The position numbers and the translations under genes were made by a program. A stretch of 64,000 nt of DNA from NCBI GenBank assembly GCA_944392275.1, contig CALXWA010000004.1, forward strand, positions 20,562 through 84,561, given 5' to 3'. Source of the DNA: an uncultured Alphaproteobacteria bacterium. GTDB taxonomy: Bacteria > Pseudomonadota > Alphaproteobacteria > RF32 > CAG-239. Below the pieces are notes generated by a model, which did no database searches, was not told the DNA's origin, and was given only the letters and a program-made list of their open reading frames with translations. Shown piece by piece: positions 7,156-57,959 of the stretch. Position 1 is the stretch's first letter, and the number at the start of each line of letters is the position of its first letter.

Positions 7156-8820
7156 CTACACCCGAGAATAAGAACGACCGGAGTACGGAACCTCTCTTGT
7201 ACTTTTTTTCTTTTGTGGAGCAAGCTTTTCCTGAAGTTTTTTGATTTTTGCCAAAGGCTTAAATCGATCTCCCATTCCTTTAACTAAATCAGAACTTAAA
7301 GACAAAAAATTAGAAGTTTTCAACAGATATTTTGTAGGATGGCGTTCTTGACGGTCCCGAAAAGAATCTAAAACAAAATTAGCACTCTCACCTTTGTGCT
7401 CTTCCGCGTGAATATCTACCCCGTCTTTGTTGTACATAATCATAATTCCAAAATTTTCCAACAAATTCTTATCAGCGGCAATTTCATCTCCGCTCGCAGC
7501 CGACAAACGATCCCAGTGGTGAATATCAATTTTATAGGGGATAGAAGAACATCCTGAAACCAATTTTGGATTAAAACTTTTATTTTCCTTCAAACTATGC
7601 GCCCATTGACAAAGAAAATCAGGATCCATTCCATTTTCAACAAAATCTTGTTGCAATTTATTGTATATTGTTGAAACTTTTCGCATACAGAGTTGATAGT
7701 CGACCTTACTTCCGCTATCATTCCAATCCTCAATTTCACTTTTAGAAGCAAAACGTTCGAGCCATATTTTTTGTTTTTCCCGTTCAGTCAGATTTTCAGC
7801 CCCACCCAACATCAAAATATCCCCCATCTTGGACGCCAGTTCCTGATAAGGACTATCACAAACATCGGGAACAACATCAACAAAAGCAACATCTTCCAAA
7901 TTTTTTGGATCGCGTTGCAAAATATAAGCTAAATCATAACTGTTAAATTGATAAGCCTTTTCCGGAGCAATTCCCATTTCCGAAAATTTTTGAGCAAAAA
8001 CCTTTGCCATTTTATGGAAATTAGAACTCCCGTTCACAGCGTTCCAAAGAGTACTAAGTGGTTCTCCTTTGTCATTTTGACCAAAGAAATCATAATCTTC
8101 CGGAGCATATTGTTTAACCTTTTTTGTCTTTTGCCAAGATCGAAATGCCTCAGATAACAAACGTTCATTCAATTGATGATTTTTATCAACAGGGGCATAA
8201 AACTTTCCGGCCGCCATACAGCGTAAAATCTTTGTAACACTAGCATCCGGCAAACTATCTTTTGCAATGATATCGGCAAAATATTTTTTATGAATAAAGT
8301 TAAATTGTGCTTCAGGAATTTCTCCTCGCTCCACCAATCGCAGAAGCTGTTCCATCGTCTCTAAACGAACATCATCATCTCTGAGCAAACTTTCAGGTGT
8401 AGCAGAAGCATAATTGCGGACATCTTCTTTTGCCATCAAACATACATATTGTCGACGAAGAGCCGCATGATATTTTCTTACTAATTCGGCAAAATTACCA
8501 TTTTGTAAAGCTTTGACATCATTCTTGTTTACAATTTTTTGCAAGTAAGATGTAACCCTTGCACGGTGTTTAAGACAACACAAATCCAAATTCGTCAAAA
8601 GCTCTCGCAAAAGATCTTTTTCATCAAGATAATTTCTTTGACTAAATTCTTTACGAGCATCCGGCCTTGTAAAAATTTTTCGGGTTATGCTCCTACTTTC
8701 AAAACTTTTTGCAGCAGAAGGACTTGTAGGTGCAGAAGAAATCGGATTTCCGGTTTCCCGATTAATTCTAATTCTTTGTCTTTTTCTTTTAATGGGAGCA
8801 TTTTCTTCAGACATATCCAC
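7156..8820 (-). CDS. hypothetical protein (554 aa, cytoplasmic, no recognisable domain)
   Basis: Long uninterrupted ORF with a GAGGTGG RBS before the ATG. Basic N-terminus (KRKRQRIRINRE); no signal peptide and no TM segment. Confidence 0.6.
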   Translation of the reverse strand: MDMSEENAPIKRKRQRIRINRETGNPISSAPTSPSAAKSFESRSITRKIFTRPDARKEFSQRNYLDEKDLLRELLTNLDLCCLKHRARVTSYLQKIVNKNDVKALQNGNFAELVRKYHAALRRQYVCLMAKEDVRNYASATPESLLRDDDVRLETMEQLLRLVERGEIPEAQFNFIHKKYFADIIAKDSLPDASVTKILRCMAAGKFYAPVDKNHQLNERLLSEAFRSWQKTKKVKQYAPEDYDFFGQNDKGEPLSTLWNAVNGSSNFHKMAKVFAQKFSEMGIAPEKAYQFNSYDLAYILQRDPKNLEDVAFVDVVPDVCDSPYQELASKMGDILMLGGAENLTEREKQKIWLERFASKSEIEDWNDSGSKVDYQLCMRKVSTIYNKLQQDFVENGMDPDFLCQWAHSLKENKSFNPKLVSGCSSIPYKIDIHHWDRLSAASGDEIAADKNLLENFGIMIMYNKDGVDIHAEEHKGESANFVLDSFRDRQERHPTKYLLKTSNFLSLSSDLVKGMGDRFKPLAKIKKLQEKLAPQKKKSTREVPYSGRSYSRV

Positions 8821-42397: not shown

Positions 42398-42571
42398 TCT
42401 TCTTCTCCAAACTACTTTTCCGTTATAGTTTGTTTATCTGAAGATGACAACCGCTCCCATTGACAATGTGTATAAAAAAAACACAGTTCCATAAATAATC
42501 CGCCAAAATAAAAATAAAAAAAAGCACCCCGTTAAGACGAAGTGCCTTTTTAACAAAAGAAACGACAACCT

Positions 42572-43255
42572 CTATTTGGTCGATTTAACCGCCATTTTTT
42601 GGTTTGCCAACAATCCTTCAGAAATCTGTAAATTTGTCATAATCAAACTATCCAAAGCTTTATCATTGACTTTATGAACATTTTTACCAATTTCTATCGT
42701 TTTGGAGGAAATATAATCCGCCAATTTAATCAGATTAGATTTTGTTTCATGAGGCATTTGGGTATTTTTGTCATTCACCATGGTTTTTATATAAACCCAT
42801 AAGTTCATGTTATTATCCAAAGCCGCAACCAAATCTTTGGCATCTTTATTTTCTTTAGCATTGGATAAATCGACGGCACATTTCAATAACGAAAAGGCTT
42901 CTTCTTTTGCCAAAGAATTTTTAACGGATTCCAACAAACCTTCTGAGATTTGCATGTTAATATTAATCAGGTTTTCATAATCTCCTTTTGTCATCCGTAT
43001 CCCTTTACTCAAGGTCAAACGTTCGACATATTTGGAAAGACTGATTAAATTCTTTTTAATTTCTTCCGGAAGCAAGTTCTTTGCGTTTTTGAGTGATGTT
43101 TCTATCCCAACCCATAATTTTAAATTTTCATCCAAAACCGTCAACTTAAACACTTCGTCATTGCTTTCGGCAGCCTCGGACAAATGTCTGGCATAATTAA
43201 GCAATACGGCAGCTTCTTTTTCGGCCTGTCTGATTTGATTTGTGGTATTTACCAT
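42572..43255 (-). CDS. flaF: FlaF-like flagellar regulatory protein, internally duplicated (two tandem FlaF-like modules)
   Basis: Two homologous halves, each with L-x-x-N-x-x-LW, a LS/ADY(V/I) segment and NLQISEGLL. Single FlaF proteins are about 110-120 aa. Directly downstream of flgH. Trimmed to the ATG at 43255, preceded by an AAGGAAG RBS. Confidence 0.5.
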   Translation of the reverse strand: MVNTTNQIRQAEKEAAVLLNYARHLSEAAESNDEVFKLTVLDENLKLWVGIETSLKNAKNLLPEEIKKNLISLSKYVERLTLSKGIRMTKGDYENLININMQISEGLLESVKNSLAKEEAFSLLKCAVDLSNAKENKDAKDLVAALDNNMNLWVYIKTMVNDKNTQMPHETKSNLIKLADYISSKTIEIGKNVHKVNDKALDSLIMTNLQISEGLLANQKMAVKSTK

Positions 43256-43492
43256 GTTTGCTTCCTTACAATACATATATTTTTTATTTTAATCTAATAA
43301 GCAGATGCAGATTTTAAACCCTTGCGGTTAAAATTTATTTAAAGACCTGCCTTTAATCGATTGGGGAAATAACTAAAGACAGGTCTTTGGGGAATTTGGC
43401 AGCTTTAGGGAAAAGGCTGCCTTAATTTTAAGAAAAAATGGGGAGATTTTTTCTTAAAAACACTTCATAATAATAAGAAAGGGTTTAAGTCT

Positions 43493-44254
43493 TTAGAACG
43501 GAGCAATAATGTCTAACACCTGACGCCCGTATCTTGGTTGTTGAACATCCGAAACAACACCCTGCCCGCCATAAGAAACGCGAAGTTCGGCAATTTTGCT
43601 TGATTCAATTGTATTATCGGAACTAATATCGGCTCGGCGGATAATGCCGCGGACCAACAAGCGTCTAACCTCATAACTAACGCGAATTTCCTGCGTTCCT
43701 TCAATGACCAAATTACCGTTCGGCAAAACCTGCGTTACAACGGCAGCCATCGTCATATCAATCTTTTCTTGGCGATCCACTTTTCCGTCGGCAGAAATTT
43801 CCCGGTTAGAATTAATATCGAGCATTGCAGACGGCTCAACGGCATCCGGTAAATAATCTTTCAAATAACTTTCATAACCGGCTAACGCTCCGATTCCCAT
43901 AGAATCTTTGTTATCATCCCGATTCTGCTCCATTTCATTTTCCATTAAAGCATTATCTTTGGCAGAAACCTTAACCGTAATAATATCACCGACTTTGGAC
44001 GCTCTCTGATCCTTAAAGAACCCGCTGGAGCCAGCCTTCCATAATGAATTGGGATTATTTTTGGCTTCAACCGTCTTAGGCATCGGCATAGAAACGGGTT
44101 CATAATCTTTTGCCTCAACCGGATTAACAATCGGTGTCAACGGTGGTTCCTGTCCGACTTGTTGTAATCTGGACCACATTCCGCATCCCGATAAGGAAGT
44201 TGTCATCATCAAAATCAACGTTCCCTTTAACAAATTTTGCTTAACTTTTTTCAT
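43493..44254 (-). CDS. flgH: flagellar L-ring lipoprotein
   Basis: Lipobox (SLSGCG) and FlgH core (GNLVIEGTQEIRVSYEVRRLLVRGII...); 253 aa. Confidence 0.9.
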   Translation of the reverse strand: MKKVKQNLLKGTLILMMTTSLSGCGMWSRLQQVGQEPPLTPIVNPVEAKDYEPVSMPMPKTVEAKNNPNSLWKAGSSGFFKDQRASKVGDIITVKVSAKDNALMENEMEQNRDDNKDSMGIGALAGYESYLKDYLPDAVEPSAMLDINSNREISADGKVDRQEKIDMTMAAVVTQVLPNGNLVIEGTQEIRVSYEVRRLLVRGIIRRADISSDNTIESSKIAELRVSYGGQGVVSDVQQPRYGRQVLDIIAPF

Positions 44255-44274
44255 CTCTAATAGTCCCCCAGCTA

Positions 44275-44988
44275 TTATTCTTGAATTTCAACGGTTTCAG
44301 CCCCGGTTACTCTTGCCTGAAACTTTTTGCCGCTTTTTAAGTTTGTCATTCCGATCATTTGACCGGCAGCTCCATCTTCTAAGGCCTCGGCTTTGGTCGT
44401 AATTTGCAACCCTTTTGCTTTATAAACCGCCGTTACGATTTTTCCTTTTTTAATAAGAATAACTTGTCCGATATCTCGATCCGTAAACATCTTTCCGGCT
44501 TTCATTGTCTTTTTAACCTCAGACCCGACAAGCTTTTCCAACTCGGTCACATGAGAACTCTTAATTCTGTTTTCCCGAACCGAAATTGTTTTCAACATAT
44601 CTTCCGTAAGAACGGTCCCTTTTTCAATATCTTCTGCAGGCACCCAAACATTTTGCAAAAGGTAATAACGTCCGTTCAAAATTGTTTTATCTTTTGCAAC
44701 CCCATCGGCAAAAATTTCCGCCGTTGCTGAAAACTTATTTTGTTCCTCATCATATTTTAAATGAGAAACCATCACTTTGAGCTTTTGGACATTTTCAAAA
44801 GAATAAGAGGTTTTTCCGCCAAACAATTCCAATTCCATCGGGGTATCAACACCTTCTTCCGCAAACTCTTTCTTAATTGCAGAGATCATATCATCTTCGG
44901 TTAAAACCGCTAAAGATGCCGCATAAACCGATGAAACAAAAGACAACGCAAAAACGAAAATTCCCCAAAACTTATTCATTTTTCCCAT
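44275..44988 (-). CDS. flgA: flagellar basal-body P-ring formation chaperone
   Basis: Signal peptide and a C-terminal SAF domain (AGQMIGMTNLKSGKKFQARVTGAETVEI). Position between flgG and flgH matches Caulobacter-type operons. Confidence 0.7.
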   Translation of the reverse strand: MGKMNKFWGIFVFALSFVSSVYAASLAVLTEDDMISAIKKEFAEEGVDTPMELELFGGKTSYSFENVQKLKVMVSHLKYDEEQNKFSATAEIFADGVAKDKTILNGRYYLLQNVWVPAEDIEKGTVLTEDMLKTISVRENRIKSSHVTELEKLVGSEVKKTMKAGKMFTDRDIGQVILIKKGKIVTAVYKAKGLQITTKAEALEDGAAGQMIGMTNLKSGKKFQARVTGAETVEIQE

Positions 44989-44995
44989 CCAAAGA

Positions 44996-45784
44996 TTAAC
45001 GCAACTGATTAACCGTATTTAGCATCTGATCGGCCGTCGAAATAATTTTAGAATTCAATTCATAAGCTCGTTGTGCCGAAACAAGCTCCGTCACTTCAGT
45101 AACCGCATCAACGTTTGAAGTTATCAAATACCCTTGCAAAATAGACCCGAAACCTTCCGTATCCGGATTATCTAAAATCGGAGCCCCCGAGGCAACTGTT
45201 TCCGTAAACATATTGTCACCGATGGCTTCCAAACCGGCCTCATTCGGGAAAGTTGCCAATTCCAACTGTCCGACATTGACCTCATCGGTTTCCCCGTCTT
45301 GCTTTACCCATACTTCACCGGAGGCATTAACATATACTTCAACAGCATCATCGGGAATTGTAATTTCAGGTTGAACAATATAACCATCGTGGGTAACAAT
45401 CACACCATCGCCGTTTCTTTGGAAAGCACCATCACGAGTATAGCCAATTCCTTTTCCTTCCGGCAATTCAATCTGAAAATAACCTCTCCCGCGGATAGCC
45501 AAATCCAAAGTATTATCCGTTTTGGTCAAACCGCCCCCTTCGGTAATACGATAAACGGCAGCCGTTCTAACACCAAGTCCCAGTTGAATTCCAGACGGAA
45601 CAATGGTTTGATCTGCGGTAGACGCAGACCCCGGACGTACAATATTTTGATACAACAAATCATTAAATTCGGCACGGCGCTTGGTATAAGCCGTCGTGTT
45701 CATATTAGCAATGTTATTGGAAATTACGTCAACGTTGGTTTGTTGTGCCAACATTCCGGTTGCTCCGATATCTAATGCTCTCAT
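44996..45784 (-). CDS. flgG: flagellar basal-body rod protein
   Basis: Rod-protein N-terminus (DIGATGMLAQQTNVDVISNNIANMNTTAY) and C-terminal SAQRAYELNSKII. The ORF-track start is a TTG; trimmed to the ATG at 45784. Confidence 0.9.
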   Translation of the reverse strand: MRALDIGATGMLAQQTNVDVISNNIANMNTTAYTKRRAEFNDLLYQNIVRPGSASTADQTIVPSGIQLGLGVRTAAVYRITEGGGLTKTDNTLDLAIRGRGYFQIELPEGKGIGYTRDGAFQRNGDGVIVTHDGYIVQPEITIPDDAVEVYVNASGEVWVKQDGETDEVNVGQLELATFPNEAGLEAIGDNMFTETVASGAPILDNPDTEGFGSILQGYLITSNVDAVTEVTELVSAQRAYELNSKIISTADQMLNTVNQLR

Positions 45785-45805
45785 AATTCTTTTCCCCTCC
45801 AAAAA

Positions 45806-46549
45806 TTATGCTAATTCCGCATAAGTTGAAATTGTATTAGAAATTCGATCATGTTCTTCATCAATCATCTGTTGAACATATTCATAACTCCGTTGCAAAT
45901 TAATCAACTTCGTCATTTCACTGATTGGCTCAACATTAGATTTTTCAACTGTTCCCTGAGCCACAATTGCTTGGTTTGACCCATAAATAACCGGATTTCC
46001 CTCAACATTATCAAAGAGAGTACCGGCAATTTTTAACAATTTTTGATTATCTTCAAAATGAGCCAATTTCAAACGGCCGATTAACCCGTTTTCCGTCAGC
46101 ACATCTCCGTTTTCGGCAATGGTAATTTCTTTTTCACCCGGAGCAAAAAAGAAAGGATCATTTGTTTCAGAAAGGACAACCGCCCCGTCATTAGTAACCA
46201 ACTTTCCATCAGCATCTAAAGAAAATTGACCTTTACGAGTGTATTTTTCCCCATTAGCCGTTTCCACACAAAAGAAGGCATCGCCTTTTATGGCAACATC
46301 AAACGTATTTCCCGTATGAACAAGTGCCCCTTCTGCAAAATTCTGAAAGCTTCCAAAATCTTCGGTAAAGAAAAGCGGCTCAGCTCCAAAACCCTCAGCA
46401 TCCGGTGTTTGCACCAAATAAGATGTAAACAAAGCATCATCGGCCTTATACCCGGAAGTATTCATGTTGGCCATATTATTGGAAACAATATCCATCTGTT
46501 TCCACAAAGCCATTTGCCGCGATAAAGCGATATAATTTGTATTATCCAT
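45806..46549 (-). CDS. flgF: flagellar basal-body rod protein
   Basis: Rod-protein N-terminal (SNNMANMNTSGYKADD) and C-terminal (LQRSYEYVQQMI) motifs; 247 aa. Confidence 0.9.
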   Translation of the reverse strand: MDNTNYIALSRQMALWKQMDIVSNNMANMNTSGYKADDALFTSYLVQTPDAEGFGAEPLFFTEDFGSFQNFAEGALVHTGNTFDVAIKGDAFFCVETANGEKYTRKGQFSLDADGKLVTNDGAVVLSETNDPFFFAPGEKEITIAENGDVLTENGLIGRLKLAHFEDNQKLLKIAGTLFDNVEGNPVIYGSNQAIVAQGTVEKSNVEPISEMTKLINLQRSYEYVQQMIDEEHDRISNTISTYAELA

Positions 46550-46599
46550 AATATTCTCCCCAATCTTTTGGATAATTTTTCATCGATGAAAGTATATAT

Positions 46600-46614
46600 G
46601 CAATAGTCGTGCCA
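46600..46614 (-). promoter_or_regulatory. sigma-54 (RpoN) promoter TGGCAC-N5-TTGC upstream of flgF
   Basis: The minus strand reads TGGCACGACTATTGCA (46614..46599), a perfect -24 GG / -12 GC spacing. It lies 51 nt upstream of the flgF ATG. Confidence 0.7.
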
Positions 46615-53048: not shown

Positions 53049-54305
53049 TTAATCTACTCCGCCGATTGGCGTTCCCACCAGTTTGAAATCATTTTTAAAA
53101 AACTTGTCATGCAAGGTTTTCCGATGTTTTCGGACCTCCATCACGTCTGCAAGCGGAGCCTTATACATTTCAATAATTGCCTGCATGGTTGAATAGCGAA
53201 CCTGTTGCATTTTTGGACTAAGTTTCTTGATTTCATCATCATCCGAGCCGCTTTTATACCTTTTGATCGCCAAAACCATATACCGCGGAATTTGTGATAA
53301 ACGATAAGCTTTCAAGGTTTTGTCACAAGTATACGCCCATTCATTAAGGGTAAAACCCTCTTTGGCAACCACTTTTGCCAACGACAACTCTTCACCCAAA
53401 ATAGAGGCTTTTTGCACCAACCTCTGACACGGATTAACCAGATCTTTCATTCCCGGTGCCGCAACAAAATTTTCCGCCGCCGCATCATAGGCCAACCACA
53501 TGGTTGTCAGTTGATAAACTTTCATTTGATTTCCGTTTTGTTTGGCCCATTCTTCAACCCCGTCTAATGTATTAATAAAAGCCTCTACATCTTTTGCCGT
53601 CAACAATGAGTTTTTTGTCGGGTTAAGGGTTCGCAAATCACTCTTCGTCAATGTTTTGGCTAAATTTCCGTTTTCCATATATTTTTCGGGAGGAACCAAT
53701 TTACGGAGATTTTGGTAAAACTCACCATCATAAACAACCTTGGCAAAAGCCTTTCTCTTAACGGGAAACTCAAAATTTTCCTTAGGCTCTTCCCATACTT
53801 CCGGACGCAATAAATAATAAAGCCCCGGAGACAAAAATTCCAAATCTTCAATATCTTTCAAAGCATCGGCCACCCGAGACGGAAAACGATTTTTAGTTTC
53901 CTTAATCCCCGGCATATTCAAAATTTTTTCGGACATATTCGGTACCGAAAACAATGCCGGTCCGATATATTCATACATCTCTTTCGGTAACGAAGCCAAA
54001 ACTTCTAAAAAAGCATCTTCATCCGGCCATTTCAGACGTTTTTCATTCATTCCGTATGTAATAATCGTCTGCCTAAATTCCGGATTAAAATCACCTTGCA
54101 AATCAAAGACACTTTTGTATTGCGGATTATACAATACCTGCTGTTTATAAAAAAAACTTTTTAATTCTTCTAAAGTCGGAAGTTGGTCTTGCTCCAAATC
54201 AATATCATAAACTTTTTCATAATCGGAAATTCCGGCAGCCAGAGAACTTGCCGCAACAAAAAAGCATCCTCCGATTAAAAAAATCAAAAACAGCTTCAAC
54301 TTCAT
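53049..54305 (-). CDS. secreted hypothetical protein (418 aa)
   Basis: Signal peptide (MKLKLFLIFLIGGCFFVAASSLAAG); no recognisable domain. Confidence 0.55.
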   Translation of the reverse strand: MKLKLFLIFLIGGCFFVAASSLAAGISDYEKVYDIDLEQDQLPTLEELKSFFYKQQVLYNPQYKSVFDLQGDFNPEFRQTIITYGMNEKRLKWPDEDAFLEVLASLPKEMYEYIGPALFSVPNMSEKILNMPGIKETKNRFPSRVADALKDIEDLEFLSPGLYYLLRPEVWEEPKENFEFPVKRKAFAKVVYDGEFYQNLRKLVPPEKYMENGNLAKTLTKSDLRTLNPTKNSLLTAKDVEAFINTLDGVEEWAKQNGNQMKVYQLTTMWLAYDAAAENFVAAPGMKDLVNPCQRLVQKASILGEELSLAKVVAKEGFTLNEWAYTCDKTLKAYRLSQIPRYMVLAIKRYKSGSDDDEIKKLSPKMQQVRYSTMQAIIEMYKAPLADVMEVRKHRKTLHDKFFKNDFKLVGTPIGGVD

Positions 54306-55736
54306 TTAGTTTCGAACCACCTTAACCGTAAACGTTAATGTTTGCTCTCCCTTTGCGGGAATATCAATTGTCCAGATTCGAGTTTGAGCTGTTTTATTTT
54401 TACCGACAATATTTTCTGTCACAATCTCCGAACTGCCATTAAAAGCTTGCTCAAAATCAAGTGTGATTTTTTCTTCTTTTTGGTTAAAGAATTGCACCGC
54501 AACATCGGCCTCAAAAGATTTATCCGACAATTTTTGAACACGAACAATCTTCCCCTTAGCATAGACATCAAAAACTTTTCCGATGCTCAGTTCAATCTCT
54601 TCCCCCGTTGTAATTTGCTCCATTTGATCCGACCCCACAAAAGCCAAATTCTTTGCCTCTCGAGCATCATAAAAACGGACCACTCCTTCGGGCAACGGAA
54701 CACCTAAATGACTCTCCTTATCATTTTTGAAGTGGTAGAAAACTTCCGGATGAAGAGCCTCAAAATCATTTTGATAAGAATTAAATGAAATCATCAATGG
54801 CGATTTTAATTGATATTTTGTCTCATAAGCTACATCTTTGGCTTCCATCAACAAAATCTGTTTTGATTGTTGGTTAATAAGATCGGTTTGGAACGGAACG
54901 GAATATTGATAATACTCCGCCATACTCTCAGCCGAAATATTTTTTGCCATAACCGCACGATCTGCCGCAAAGCTTGCATTTAACAAAGCACCGCGAGCCA
55001 TAGGAGCTACCGGAACCGCATTTTGCACATTATTAACTTGTCCGGATACTAAAGAAATTTTTGCATTTTTATAATCCGTCCCTGAGTTATTGGTAAGGGT
55101 TGCCCACGCCTGCCAGTTTAACTTATCTTTCCCAACAAGCTCGGCAACATAATTGGTTTGCCACGAAAGTCCCGTAGTCAGATAATTGAGTACCAAATTT
55201 TTAGCCCCGGCGGATGCAGCATCTACGGAAACGGAAAAGGTCGGTTTAATCTTTAAGTTTTCCGGAAGGTCATTAAAAACGATTCGTCCGGGAAAATCAC
55301 TTTCAATTCCATAAGAAAATTTCAGCAACGGATTTCCATATCCGGCACTGACAACCGTTGCTTTATCAAAATAATTTTCACCACTGTCCGGATTAAAAAT
55401 TACGGTTTTTACCTCTTTTCCGACAAAATGTTGCAAAAGATTATTCTTATTTAAAAGGTCATAAGCATAATTTTGCTCCAAAACTTGAATTCCCTCACCA
55501 ACCAAAAAAGCGGTTTCGGGTTTCATTTGTTCAGAAACGCCTTCAAAAGCAATAACATTTTTCCCCTTTGCTAAATCCGCCTCCCGAGTATCGGAAACCA
55601 ACGCCAAATTTTGCGGATAAATATGGAGCTCGACACCTTTTACATCTAAAGCATCCAGTTTTAAAAGACTCGCATAGAGCGGAGAAATTCCAACTCCCAT
55701 TCCAAGACAAACCCAAACAGCTAAATATTTTTTCAT
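54306..55736 (-). CDS. secreted hypothetical protein (476 aa), possibly DUF4139/DUF4140-like
   Basis: Signal peptide. Beta-rich composition and a LNYLTTGLSWQTNYVAEL segment reminiscent of the DUF4139 family; this resemblance is unverified. Its stop abuts the start of the downstream secreted gene. Confidence 0.5.
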   Translation of the reverse strand: MKKYLAVWVCLGMGVGISPLYASLLKLDALDVKGVELHIYPQNLALVSDTREADLAKGKNVIAFEGVSEQMKPETAFLVGEGIQVLEQNYAYDLLNKNNLLQHFVGKEVKTVIFNPDSGENYFDKATVVSAGYGNPLLKFSYGIESDFPGRIVFNDLPENLKIKPTFSVSVDAASAGAKNLVLNYLTTGLSWQTNYVAELVGKDKLNWQAWATLTNNSGTDYKNAKISLVSGQVNNVQNAVPVAPMARGALLNASFAADRAVMAKNISAESMAEYYQYSVPFQTDLINQQSKQILLMEAKDVAYETKYQLKSPLMISFNSYQNDFEALHPEVFYHFKNDKESHLGVPLPEGVVRFYDAREAKNLAFVGSDQMEQITTGEEIELSIGKVFDVYAKGKIVRVQKLSDKSFEADVAVQFFNQKEEKITLDFEQAFNGSSEIVTENIVGKNKTAQTRIWTIDIPAKGEQTLTFTVKVVRN

Positions 55737-55848: not shown

Positions 55849-55886
55849 CTCAATATAAAAACATTTTGTTTGAAGGAGAAATAAAA

Positions 55887-56414
55887 ATGGCGTGGACAGA
55901 TCAAATGGTCGAAGACCTCAAAAAAATGTGGAAAGAAGGTCTGACAACGGGAGAAATCGGAAAACGGCTTAACGTATCCAAAAACTCTATCGTTGGAAAA
56001 GTTCACCGTCTGGGCTTATCAGGACGTCCTTCACCAATTAAGAAAAAAGAAGAGACCACCCCAAAAGCAACAGAAAACAAATCTGCTTCTCCTAAACCGG
56101 CTCCGGAAAAGGCGGCACCTTCCAAAGCTCCGGCCAAAACAAATGTAAAACAAAAACCAGCAGAAACCCCAAAAGACAATTTTCAAACCTGTCTCAACAA
56201 AGAATTAGAAAAAAACTTTCTTTCTCCCAACAATAAAGAGAAGAAAAACAATGGCTTTGTTACGCTGACGGACTTAGACAGCCATACCTGTCGTTGGCCG
56301 ATAGGTGACCCCAAAGATGAAAACTTTCATTTTTGCGGCAAAAAGGTTAAAATCGGCCAAACATATTGTGAAGAACACGCGGCCATTGCCTATGTGAAAC
56401 CTTCTAAAAAATAA
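55887..56414 (+). CDS. gcrA: cell-cycle regulator GcrA
   Basis: MAWTDQMVEDLKKMWKEGLTTGEIGKRLNVSKNSIVGKVHRLGL, a flexible linker, and the conserved C-terminal domain. Trimmed to the ATG at 55887, preceded by an AAGGAG RBS. Confidence 0.85.
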   Translation: MAWTDQMVEDLKKMWKEGLTTGEIGKRLNVSKNSIVGKVHRLGLSGRPSPIKKKEETTPKATENKSASPKPAPEKAAPSKAPAKTNVKQKPAETPKDNFQTCLNKELEKNFLSPNNKEKKNNGFVTLTDLDSHTCRWPIGDPKDENFHFCGKKVKIGQTYCEEHAAIAYVKPSKK

Positions 56415-56428
56415 CAAAATATTAACTT

Positions 56429-56457
56429 TTGACATGATATATTACAGACAATAGTAA
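56429..56457 (+). promoter_or_regulatory. candidate sigma-70 promoter TTGACA-N17-TAGTAA for motAB
   Basis: A consensus -35 hexamer with a 17-nt spacer, about 25 nt upstream of the motA ATG. Confidence 0.35.
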
Positions 56458-56480
56458 TTATCTTTTAAGGACAAGAACTT

Positions 56481-57287
56481 ATGTCTGTAAGTATGTTGAT
56501 TGCGTTTATCGCAGGCATTGCGGTAGTTATCGGTTCAATTGTCAGTGCAACCGACCGTCCGCAAATGTTTATTGATATTCCGAGTATCATTATTGTTTTT
56601 GGCGGAACATTTGTAACCCTTTTTATATCATATGAACTTAAAACGGCTCTTGGAGCCTTGAAATTGATTGGTCAGTCCTTCAAAAGACATGATGATTCGA
56701 TTAAATCCCTAAAAAATGAAGTTGGTCGCCTTATTCGTTGGGGGTATCTTGTCCAAAAGAACGGACTTCAAGGCCTTGAAAATGAAGTCAATGATGATTT
56801 ACGCAAAGAAAATTCCTTTTTGGCTTATGGTGCCGATTTGGTTATAACCGGCTATACCGGAAATGAAATACGCCAAATTTTACTCGATATGCTGGAAGCA
56901 CAAGCCGAACGCTTGAAACGACCGGTAGATGCCTTAAAAAAGATGGGGGGCGATGCTCCGGCTTTTGGTATGCTCGGGACCTTAATTGGGTTGGTTATTA
57001 TGCTTGGCAGCATGGGTGGAGATCCGGCGGCGATTGGTCCAAGTATGGCTGTTGCGTTAATTACAACATTTTATGGTATTATTCTTGCCCGTATCGTTAT
57101 GATTCCGATTGGTACAAAAATGGCCGCTCGAATGGATGTCACTTTATTTAAGTACAACCTCGAACTGGAAGGTCTGGTTCTTTTAGCCGAAAGAAAAAGT
57201 CCTCGCTACATTCAAGATAAAATCAACTCATTTGTCGATGACAATGAACAATTCTTGATTGATCGCGACATGGACAGAGGCTCTTAG
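56481..57287 (+). CDS. motA: flagellar motor stator protein MotA/PomA
   Basis: 4-TM MotA/TolQ/ExbB family. Conserved PAFGMLGTLIGL in TM3 and a cytoplasmic loop; 268 aa. Followed by motB. Confidence 0.85.
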   Translation: MSVSMLIAFIAGIAVVIGSIVSATDRPQMFIDIPSIIIVFGGTFVTLFISYELKTALGALKLIGQSFKRHDDSIKSLKNEVGRLIRWGYLVQKNGLQGLENEVNDDLRKENSFLAYGADLVITGYTGNEIRQILLDMLEAQAERLKRPVDALKKMGGDAPAFGMLGTLIGLVIMLGSMGGDPAAIGPSMAVALITTFYGIILARIVMIPIGTKMAARMDVTLFKYNLELEGLVLLAERKSPRYIQDKINSFVDDNEQFLIDRDMDRGS

Positions 57288-57302
57288 TTCGGAGAGATAT
57301 AA

Positions 57303-57959
57303 ATGAAAAAAAAGTCTGAAGATAAAATTGATGAAGATTGGATGTCGACCTATGGTGACATGGTCACATTACTTCTGTGCTTTTTTGTCATGATGGTTTC
57401 CGTTTCCAAAACAGATGTTGCTAAATTTGAGATGATTCAAGCCGGCCTAAACGAAAGCATAGGCAAACAAAGCGTCACTCGCCCGATTGAAATGATGTTG
57501 ATGGAACTTGCTGAAGATGTTCAGTCTTTAAGTGCAGAAGACAGCATTGCCTTAGGGAGCGATACGCAAGGAGTTGTAATTGAACTTGGCGATAATCTAA
57601 TTTTTGATCATGGCTCTGCTGAACTCAAACCAGAGGCTATTCCCGTGCTAAAAAGAATTGCGGCCACACTCCAATCCGAAAGATACAGCTCTTTCAATTT
57701 TAGTATTGAGGGACACACCAGTGATGAGCCGTTTTCCAGTGCTTTATACCCTTCCAATTGGGAATTATCTTCCGCACGAGCCGCCGCTGTTGCTCGCTTT
57801 TTGGAAAAAAGAGGGATTCAAAGAATGCGTCTAAAAATAACCGGAATGTATGATATTGCACCTAAATATCCCAATTTAGACCCCTATGGACAACCCATCC
57901 CGCAAAATCGAGAAAAGAACAGACGTGTGGTTATCCATGTTGAACCATCCTTTTTATAA
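57303..57959 (+). CDS. motB: flagellar motor protein MotB (OmpA-like peptidoglycan-binding domain)
   Basis: N-terminal TM with WMSTYGDMVTLLL plug/TM motif, and a C-terminal OmpA-like domain (NWELSSARAAAVARFL). Confidence 0.85.
   Translation: MKKKSEDKIDEDWMSTYGDMVTLLLCFFVMMVSVSKTDVAKFEMIQAGLNESIGKQSVTRPIEMMLMELAEDVQSLSAEDSIALGSDTQGVVIELGDNLIFDHGSAELKPEAIPVLKRIAATLQSERYSSFNFSIEGHTSDEPFSSALYPSNWELSSARAAAVARFLEKRGIQRMRLKITGMYDIAPKYPNLDPYGQPIPQNREKNRRVVIHVEPSFL

Follow-up and report, generated by a model that had tools for sequence, protein, structure and literature searches.

A two-module FlaF encoded beside flgH in a gut lineage of uncultured Alphaproteobacteria

FlaF is one of the few flagellar factors specific to the Alphaproteobacteria, and only recently has it become clear how it acts. 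In Caulobacter, flagellins are its ligands and depend on it to be secreted or synthesized (PMC7591256, PMC9812332). The secretion of a flagellin-like co-repressor, which FlaF potentiates, lifts the translational repression by FlbT (PMC9812332). What, then, is to be made of a gene in which FlaF seems to be written twice? Such a gene was pointed out in a preliminary description of a 64-kb stretch of DNA from an uncultured alphaproteobacterium (this whole stretch is called the window in what follows), where its product was said to consist of two homologous halves, both of them FlaF. This article documents the domain architecture, conservation, synteny, regulatory motifs and fold similarity of the doubled protein, and asks how the doubling arose and what it might be for. 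The answer that we favour, and hold to be moderately probable, is that the doubled FlaF would be a flagellin-binding chaperone with two sites, the product of an old in-place duplication, transcribed mainly as a unit of its own.

Two FlaF modules in one polypeptide

The Shine-Dalgarno sequence of the gene, AAGGAAGC, lies 5 nt 5′ of the flaF ATG at 43255 (Table 1). Another in-frame ATG farther upstream, at 43276, has no such sequence, and in all 77 related spacers between flgH and flaF a Shine-Dalgarno-like element is found at most 20 nt from the flaF start codon. A protein identical to that of the window is encoded on at least 65 public contigs, and its close orthologues carry the NCBI name “flagellar biosynthesis regulator FlaF.”

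Table 1. Positions of the flaF gene, its modules and the neighbouring elements (window coordinates unless a locus is named).
Feature	Position	Strand	Basis
Two-module FlaF coding sequence, 227 aa + stop codon	42572..43255	minus	ORF list and sequence; PF07309 100 bits, two stretches
Module D1, residues 1-113: derived, lineage-specific FlaF module	42917..43255	minus	PF07309 59 bits; D1 profile 183 bits
Module D2, residues 114-227: closest to ordinary single-module FlaF	42575..42916	minus	PF07309 50 bits; D2-like single modules
Shine-Dalgarno AAGGAAGC of flaF	43260..43267	minus	direct sequence reading
flaF promoter-like region TTTAAA-N16-TAGATT	43291..43318	minus	weak copy of family motif
Structured spacer RNA or flgH 3′ region	43335..43460	minus	three hairpins, C-rich loops UCUCCCCA, CUUUUCCCUAAA, UUUCCCCAAU
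flgF-flgG-flgA-flgH: rod, P-ring chaperone and L-ring genes	43493..46549	minus	Pfam on identical genes of L088
Sigma-54-type promoter TGGCAC-N5-TTGCA before flgF	46599..46614	minus	sequence; conserved pattern
Intrinsic terminator right after flaF stop	42518..42551	minus	15-pair stem, then T run
Spacer element in relatives	flgH-flaF spacers of L001-L079; L083 7905-8000; L086 7787-8000; L093 4912-5000		

Against the Pfam family of FlaF (PF07309, a model of 113 positions with a cut-off of 23.6 bits), the intact protein scores 100.1 bits, split over two stretches. Scanned separately, the N-terminal half reaches 59.0 bits and the C-terminal half 50.3 bits, both above the cut-off, and each spans nearly all 113 positions. 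A BLASTP alignment of one half with the other shows 39% identity across 105 residues (E=3e-18), and a leftover of the repeat survives in the DNA itself, 43 nt at 74% identity in copies 315 nt (105 codons) apart. Together, the half-by-half Pfam scores, the self-alignment and the DNA remnant make the duplication real, far beyond chance. The claim of two homologous FlaF halves therefore held in the separate family searches as in the self-alignment, and that of a canonical FlaF made of one module of about 115 residues agrees with the 113-116 positions of the canonical models. The sequence segments cited with it are also there, including SKYV and ADYI, with two corrections: the first motif reads L-x-x-N-x-x-L-W (LDENLKLW and LDNNMNLW in the two halves), and the N-terminal half has NMQISEGLL instead of NLQISEGLL.

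Set beside FlaF of Caulobacter and other Alphaproteobacteria (PF07309, NF009435, NF009434), each half aligns over the full length of the family model and keeps the family motifs, but the protein holds two modules in 227 residues where the canonical one holds a single module of about 115. It also falls just under the equivalog cut-off of NCBIfam NF009435 (86.0 bits for the intact protein against 91, the halves alone reaching 52.9 and 44.2 bits), and well under that of NF009434 (39.1 bits against 99).

How widespread is this arrangement? A search of 5.8 billion proteins, clustered at 90% identity, gave 454 clusters of homologous proteins, of which the best 120 are 204-242 residues long, nearly all about 220, and all have PF07309. 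At the level of genomes, the two-module gene turned up in at least 80 species-level genomes when one genome per species was scanned on the basis of an alignment. The carriers are uncultured Alphaproteobacteria of the human, mouse, chicken and deer gut, under record names that include “Proteobacteria bacterium CAG:495,” “Candidatus Scatocola” and “uncultured Azospirillum sp.”; Ca. Scatocola is assigned to the Rhodospirillales in the NCBI taxonomy, and we take the carrier lineage to be the GTDB order RF32. These are abundant uncultured members of the human and animal gut microbiota, and since their flagellins are potential immune ligands, the control of flagellin output has some wider relevance. 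Literature searches returned no paper on a multi-module FlaF or on the flagella of this lineage. What is known here is the FlaF family; what is new is a two-module architecture conserved across a gut lineage.

Pairwise comparison of 120 orthologues gives a mean identity of 73% for the first module (D1) and 76% for the second (D2), while D1 and D2 of one and the same protein are 33-47% identical. Twenty-five positions are conserved in D1 and D2 alike, including LD-N--LWV, LP and N-QISEGL. This within-module identity, with the common positions, makes the duplication older than the radiation of the family and indicates that neither copy is decaying; as far as sequence comparison can tell, both modules appear to have been held under purifying selection since the duplication. 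The doubling is a real, old and conserved architectural variant of the known FlaF family.

The two modules differ in type. D1 scores 183 bits against a D1 profile and 70 bits against a D2 profile, it has invariant segments of its own such as SKYVERLTLSKG, and outside the gut family its type occurs only in P0129, a relative at 46% identity. The common kind is D2: 40 of 45 single-module representatives score higher on the D2 than on the D1 profile, nearly all modules of three-module proteins do the same, and single-module matches mostly align to residues 114-220 of the two-module protein. D1s and D2s fall into separate groups across the family, a typing that rests on profile scores, the neighbour-joining domain tree being weakly resolved. 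By these scores, D1 is a derived type and D2 the generic FlaF type. The lineage-specific character of D1, its own invariant segments and the preference of other FlaF modules for the D2 profile also speak for an alternative in which labour is divided, D2 keeping flagellin binding and the derived D1 having acquired a different partner, for which the FlhA export gate, a hook-associated or cap protein, or a complex of mRNA and flagellin co-repressor are candidates. We hold this possible, if on balance doubtful: D1 outscores D2 on PF07309 (59 against 50 bits), and the 25 positions common to both argue for a conserved type of ligand.

Where do the extra modules come from? A wider, exhaustive search of 1.84 billion cluster representatives returned 242 relatives, mostly single modules of 110-125 residues, along with three-module FlaFs of 323-357 residues and further two-module proteins. 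More than one module is found in about 14 of the best 150 cluster representatives (50% identity). A tandem FlaF had been called unusual, and at the level of the family so it is; within the gut lineage, two modules are the rule. The relatives are also informative by their position. The three-module P0123 (locus L083), whose cluster also has a member from “Acetobacter sp. CAG:977,” lies directly after flgF-flgG-flgA-flgH; so do, after flgH, the 34%-identical two-module P0140 (L086) and the single-module P0143 (L093), at whose locus tblastn finds one module only. P0123 and P0143 share with the window protein the family, the post-flgH position and a C-rich-loop hairpin after flgH; they differ from it in having three modules or one, none of P0123's three being of the D1 type, and in the genomic G+C of their carriers (about 48%, against 39% here). 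The two-module FlaF belongs to a series of one, two and three modules, which is most simply read as follows: a flaF with one module already stood beside flgH and, in different sublineages, grew in place to two modules or to three. The gut protein would go back to one such old in-place duplication, after which D2 would have stayed near ordinary FlaF, with the ancestral binding mode, and D1 would have diverged as a second site.

Outside the Alphaproteobacteria, a Thermodesulfovibrionales MAG encodes a two-module FlaF with very similar halves (L085 415-1122, JAOAHB010000292.1), which adjoins greA and pyrimidine biosynthesis genes, a non-flagellar neighbourhood. This duplication is independent and recent.

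The flgH neighbourhood and the transcription of flaF

The order flgF-flgG-flgA-flgH-flaF, with flaF in the same orientation as flgH, is found in 76 of the 80 loci, and both flanks are variable. On the identical genes of L088, Pfam recognizes Flg_bb_rod twice, ChapFlgA and FlgH. A link to flagellar genes is something the doubled gene has in common with canonical flaF, and it bears on the question of whether the protein is flagellar at all. One could picture a FlaF-like helical protein that is not a flagellin chaperone, has a non-flagellar function and sits beside flgH for historical reasons. PF07309 domains do occur in non-flagellar neighbourhoods: single-module genes are found among housekeeping genes too, and a plasmid search for a flaF-flbT locus gave only Azospirillum FlaF-DUF2934 fusions, in non-flagellar contexts. 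With FlaF domains found away from flagellar genes, PF07309 membership alone is no proof of a flagellar role. Moreover, the two-module gene itself lies among housekeeping genes in L080, L042 and L044, detached from flgFGAH. Even so, this picture fits poorly and we consider it very unlikely, because the linkage to flgFGAH persists in 76 of the 80 species despite the variable flanks, because it is retained in relatives just 34-44% identical, and because the best matches of the predicted fold are flagellin chaperones.

The fusions just mentioned (L082 5872-6417, on Azospirillum lipoferum 4B plasmid AZO_p5; L081 5845-6420; P0137, P0150 and P0179) resemble the window protein in that their one PF07309 module is 32-42% identical to D2; they differ in that a C-terminal DUF2934 replaces the second FlaF module and the neighbourhood is non-flagellar.

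The gene had been placed at the end of the flgF-flgG-flgA-flgH operon. As to position this is right, flaF following flgH in the same orientation in the 76 loci; as to the operon it is less so. While flgF, flgG, flgA and flgH are closely packed, the flgH-flaF spacer measures 237 nt in the window, with a median of 248 and a minimum of 179 nt in related loci. The promoter ahead of flgF is of the textbook sigma-54 kind. Its pattern recurs 43-51 nt before flgF in 72 of 73 loci, and none of 77 has it before flaF, for which reason a sigma-54 promoter for flaF was rejected. Ahead of flaF there is instead a family motif, TTTAAA-N15/16-TTATAT, often preceded by GTGGAT, which is present in 41 of the 77 spacers (0.8 in shuffles); in 39 of these 41 there are 31-48 nt between its end and the ATG, in the other two 67-68 nt. 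It is clearer in L010, L053, L056 and others, the copy of the window being degenerate. Where flaF is detached from flgFGAH (L080, L042 and L044), a related motif still precedes it, so that the motif moves with the gene. Which sigma factor could read it? A sigma-28 promoter was rejected as well, the motif having no correctly spaced CGA core in its -10 element; the motif fits neither sigma-28 nor sigma-54. No CtrA box (TTAA-N7-TTAA) was seen by eye.

At the other end, flaF has a strong intrinsic terminator of its own (Table 1). Between flgH and flaF, no canonical T-tailed terminator was found in the window, the hairpins of the spacer being without a T tail, so read-through into flaF from the sigma-54 promoter is possible. 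Given a promoter-like motif and a terminator of its own, and sigma-54 only at flgF, flaF is best seen as a separate transcription unit, and to call it just the final cistron of the flgFGAH operon would probably be wrong. In the reading that we favour it would be transcribed mainly as such a unit, from a presumed promoter, apart from the sigma-54-driven flgFGAH genes.

Some other genes of the window may be recorded here. On the plus strand (55866-57959), motA and motB come after gcrA, the gene of a cell-cycle regulator (133 bits); this is consistent with an alphaproteobacterium having a functional flagellar motor. On the minus strand, at 53049-55736 and 7156-8820, there are two large ORFs, of 418 and 554 residues, that match no Pfam family. 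The first of them adjoins a weak DUF4139 protein; a DUF4140/DUF4139 gene is also found near the three-module flaF in L083.

Predicted fold, partners and FlbT

Two independent AlphaFold runs on different alignments (40 and 112 sequences) gave the same topology, with a mean pLDDT of 83 and helices predicted at residues 2-30, 34-56, 64-87, 90-136, 139-161, 169-191 and 198-224. The model consists of two four-helix bundles, in which helix 4 of the first bundle is at the same time helix 1 of the second (residues 90-136); with a pTM of 0.56-0.58, the orientation of the bundles relative to each other is uncertain. In Foldseek, the model matches FliS chains with a probability of 0.98-1.0 and a target TM-score of 0.59-0.78, and each module is thus predicted to have a FliS-like four-helix-bundle fold. 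The predicted module and FliS (PDB 5xef, 3iqc, 1orj, 6ch3) are both antiparallel four-helix bundles, of about 110 residues, which superpose at 1.9-2.4 Å across 102-109 residues, and both families are flagellin chaperones, FlaF according to PMC7591256 and FliS according to the titles of the PDB entries. They differ in that FliS is a single module and the window protein has two, and in sequence, where identity in the structural alignment is just 8-18% with no detectable similarity: the FliS family is absent among Pfam matches, and any FliS chain among PDB sequence search matches, in both cases up to E=10. The predicted fold is consistent with the published function of Caulobacter FlaF.

The favoured model would run as follows. 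Two FliS-like four-helix-bundle modules would be arranged head to tail and joined through one long helix, offering two non-identical binding sites on one polypeptide, each for a presumed ligand. Going by its homology with Caulobacter FlaF, the protein most likely acts in the cytoplasm, where it would bind flagellin and further both its export and its synthesis. The occurrence of one-, two- and three-module FlaFs at one conserved locus offers a natural test of how many clients are bound per module, and which ones, a test supported by the FliS-fold prediction for each module.

Could the fusion instead be a dimer on a single chain? If ordinary FlaF is a homodimer, linking two modules would hard-wire it and leave the function unchanged. 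Tandem duplication of FlaF arose more than once, as the independent case in Thermodesulfovibrionales attests, and such recurrence is expected if self-association is intrinsic to the FlaF module. The idea nonetheless fits poorly, and we rate it as distinctly improbable: the three-module proteins at the post-flgH locus are a misfit to a strict dimer, D1 and D2 have diverged asymmetrically, and the continuous helix predicted at 90-136 would set the modules end to end, like tandem spectrin repeats, and not side by side.

The two-site chaperone is assumed to act on flagellin, and FlaF elsewhere is bound up with FlbT. The gene flaF is generally found upstream of flbT and co-transcribed with it (PMC9812332), and in Rhodobacterales flagellin, flaF and flbT form a fliC-flaF-flbT cluster (PMC11974857). 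Here, flaF comes after flgH, with no flbT within 10 kb. Two FlbT probe sequences, validated against PF07378 (153 and 140 bits), gave no match in the 64-kb window, in the 1.29 Mb of the 80 related loci or in loci L083-L093, among them those of the one- and three-module relatives, so the absence of an adjacent flbT had been rightly noted; against the published flaF-flbT linkage, it is a real difference. A simple regular-expression motif search gave no flagellin gene in the window or in the 80 loci, and neither flagellin nor flbT nor fliS is found in the window or within 10 kb of flaF in any related locus; the partner of the two-module FlaF is therefore a presumed one.

Does the missing flbT point to a new role for the doubled protein? 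Were D1 to bind mRNA or a co-repressor, in the division of labour considered above, the two-module FlaF would take over part or all of the role of FlbT, and the lack of flbT near any of the 80 loci is in keeping with this. However, the single-module flaF at the post-flgH position (L093) has no adjacent flbT either, so this trait is common to both and is not tied to the duplication. The altered FlaF/FlbT control logic proposed at the outset stays conjectural for the same reason, and nothing shows that the doubling of FlaF changes flagellar regulation.

The structured flgH-flaF spacer

The spacer between flgH and flaF has features of its own. In the window, it folds with an energy of -43.6 kcal/mol (z = -10.3), and a single unpaired UUCCCC stands between its hairpins (Table 1). 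The 77 spacers average 5.06 copies of TYCCC on the sense strand; shuffled sequences yield 0.24 and the opposite strand 0.25. In 59 of the 77 loci (6 of 77 in shuffles) the motif lies in a loop closed by at least eight consecutive pairs. The closing stems have 48 different arm sequences among these 59 spacers, and compensatory changes are seen in eight of the nine predicted consensus pairs. The spacer matches no Rfam family. C-rich-loop hairpins come after flgH in the distant loci too, whether these encode one, two or three modules, but not in the loci where flaF and flgH are apart (L080, L042 and L044), from which it follows that the element is part of the 3′ end of flgH. It could be a 3′-UTR element of flgH or a small RNA, with loops that are anti-Shine-Dalgarno-like or bind a protein. 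These UYCCC hairpins may be an undescribed regulatory RNA, and may be more novel than the doubled FlaF.

A bolder proposal, which we think unlikely, brings RNA and protein together: in the gut clade, late flagellar control would have been rebuilt around a multivalent FlaF and a UYCCC-rich spacer RNA. In FlaF, with its one, two or three modules, those that were added could bind different clients (different flagellins, the two disordered ends of a single flagellin, or the export gate), and the spacer RNA could regulate late flagellar mRNAs as an anti-Shine-Dalgarno element or by titrating a protein, in the place that FlbT has elsewhere.

Upstream of flgF in L051 (1-700, minus strand), at the contig end, there is a long C/T-rich region whose units repeat about every 240 nt. 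It was considered as a further TYCCC cluster of the spacer type and set aside as a C/T-rich repeat of a different kind.
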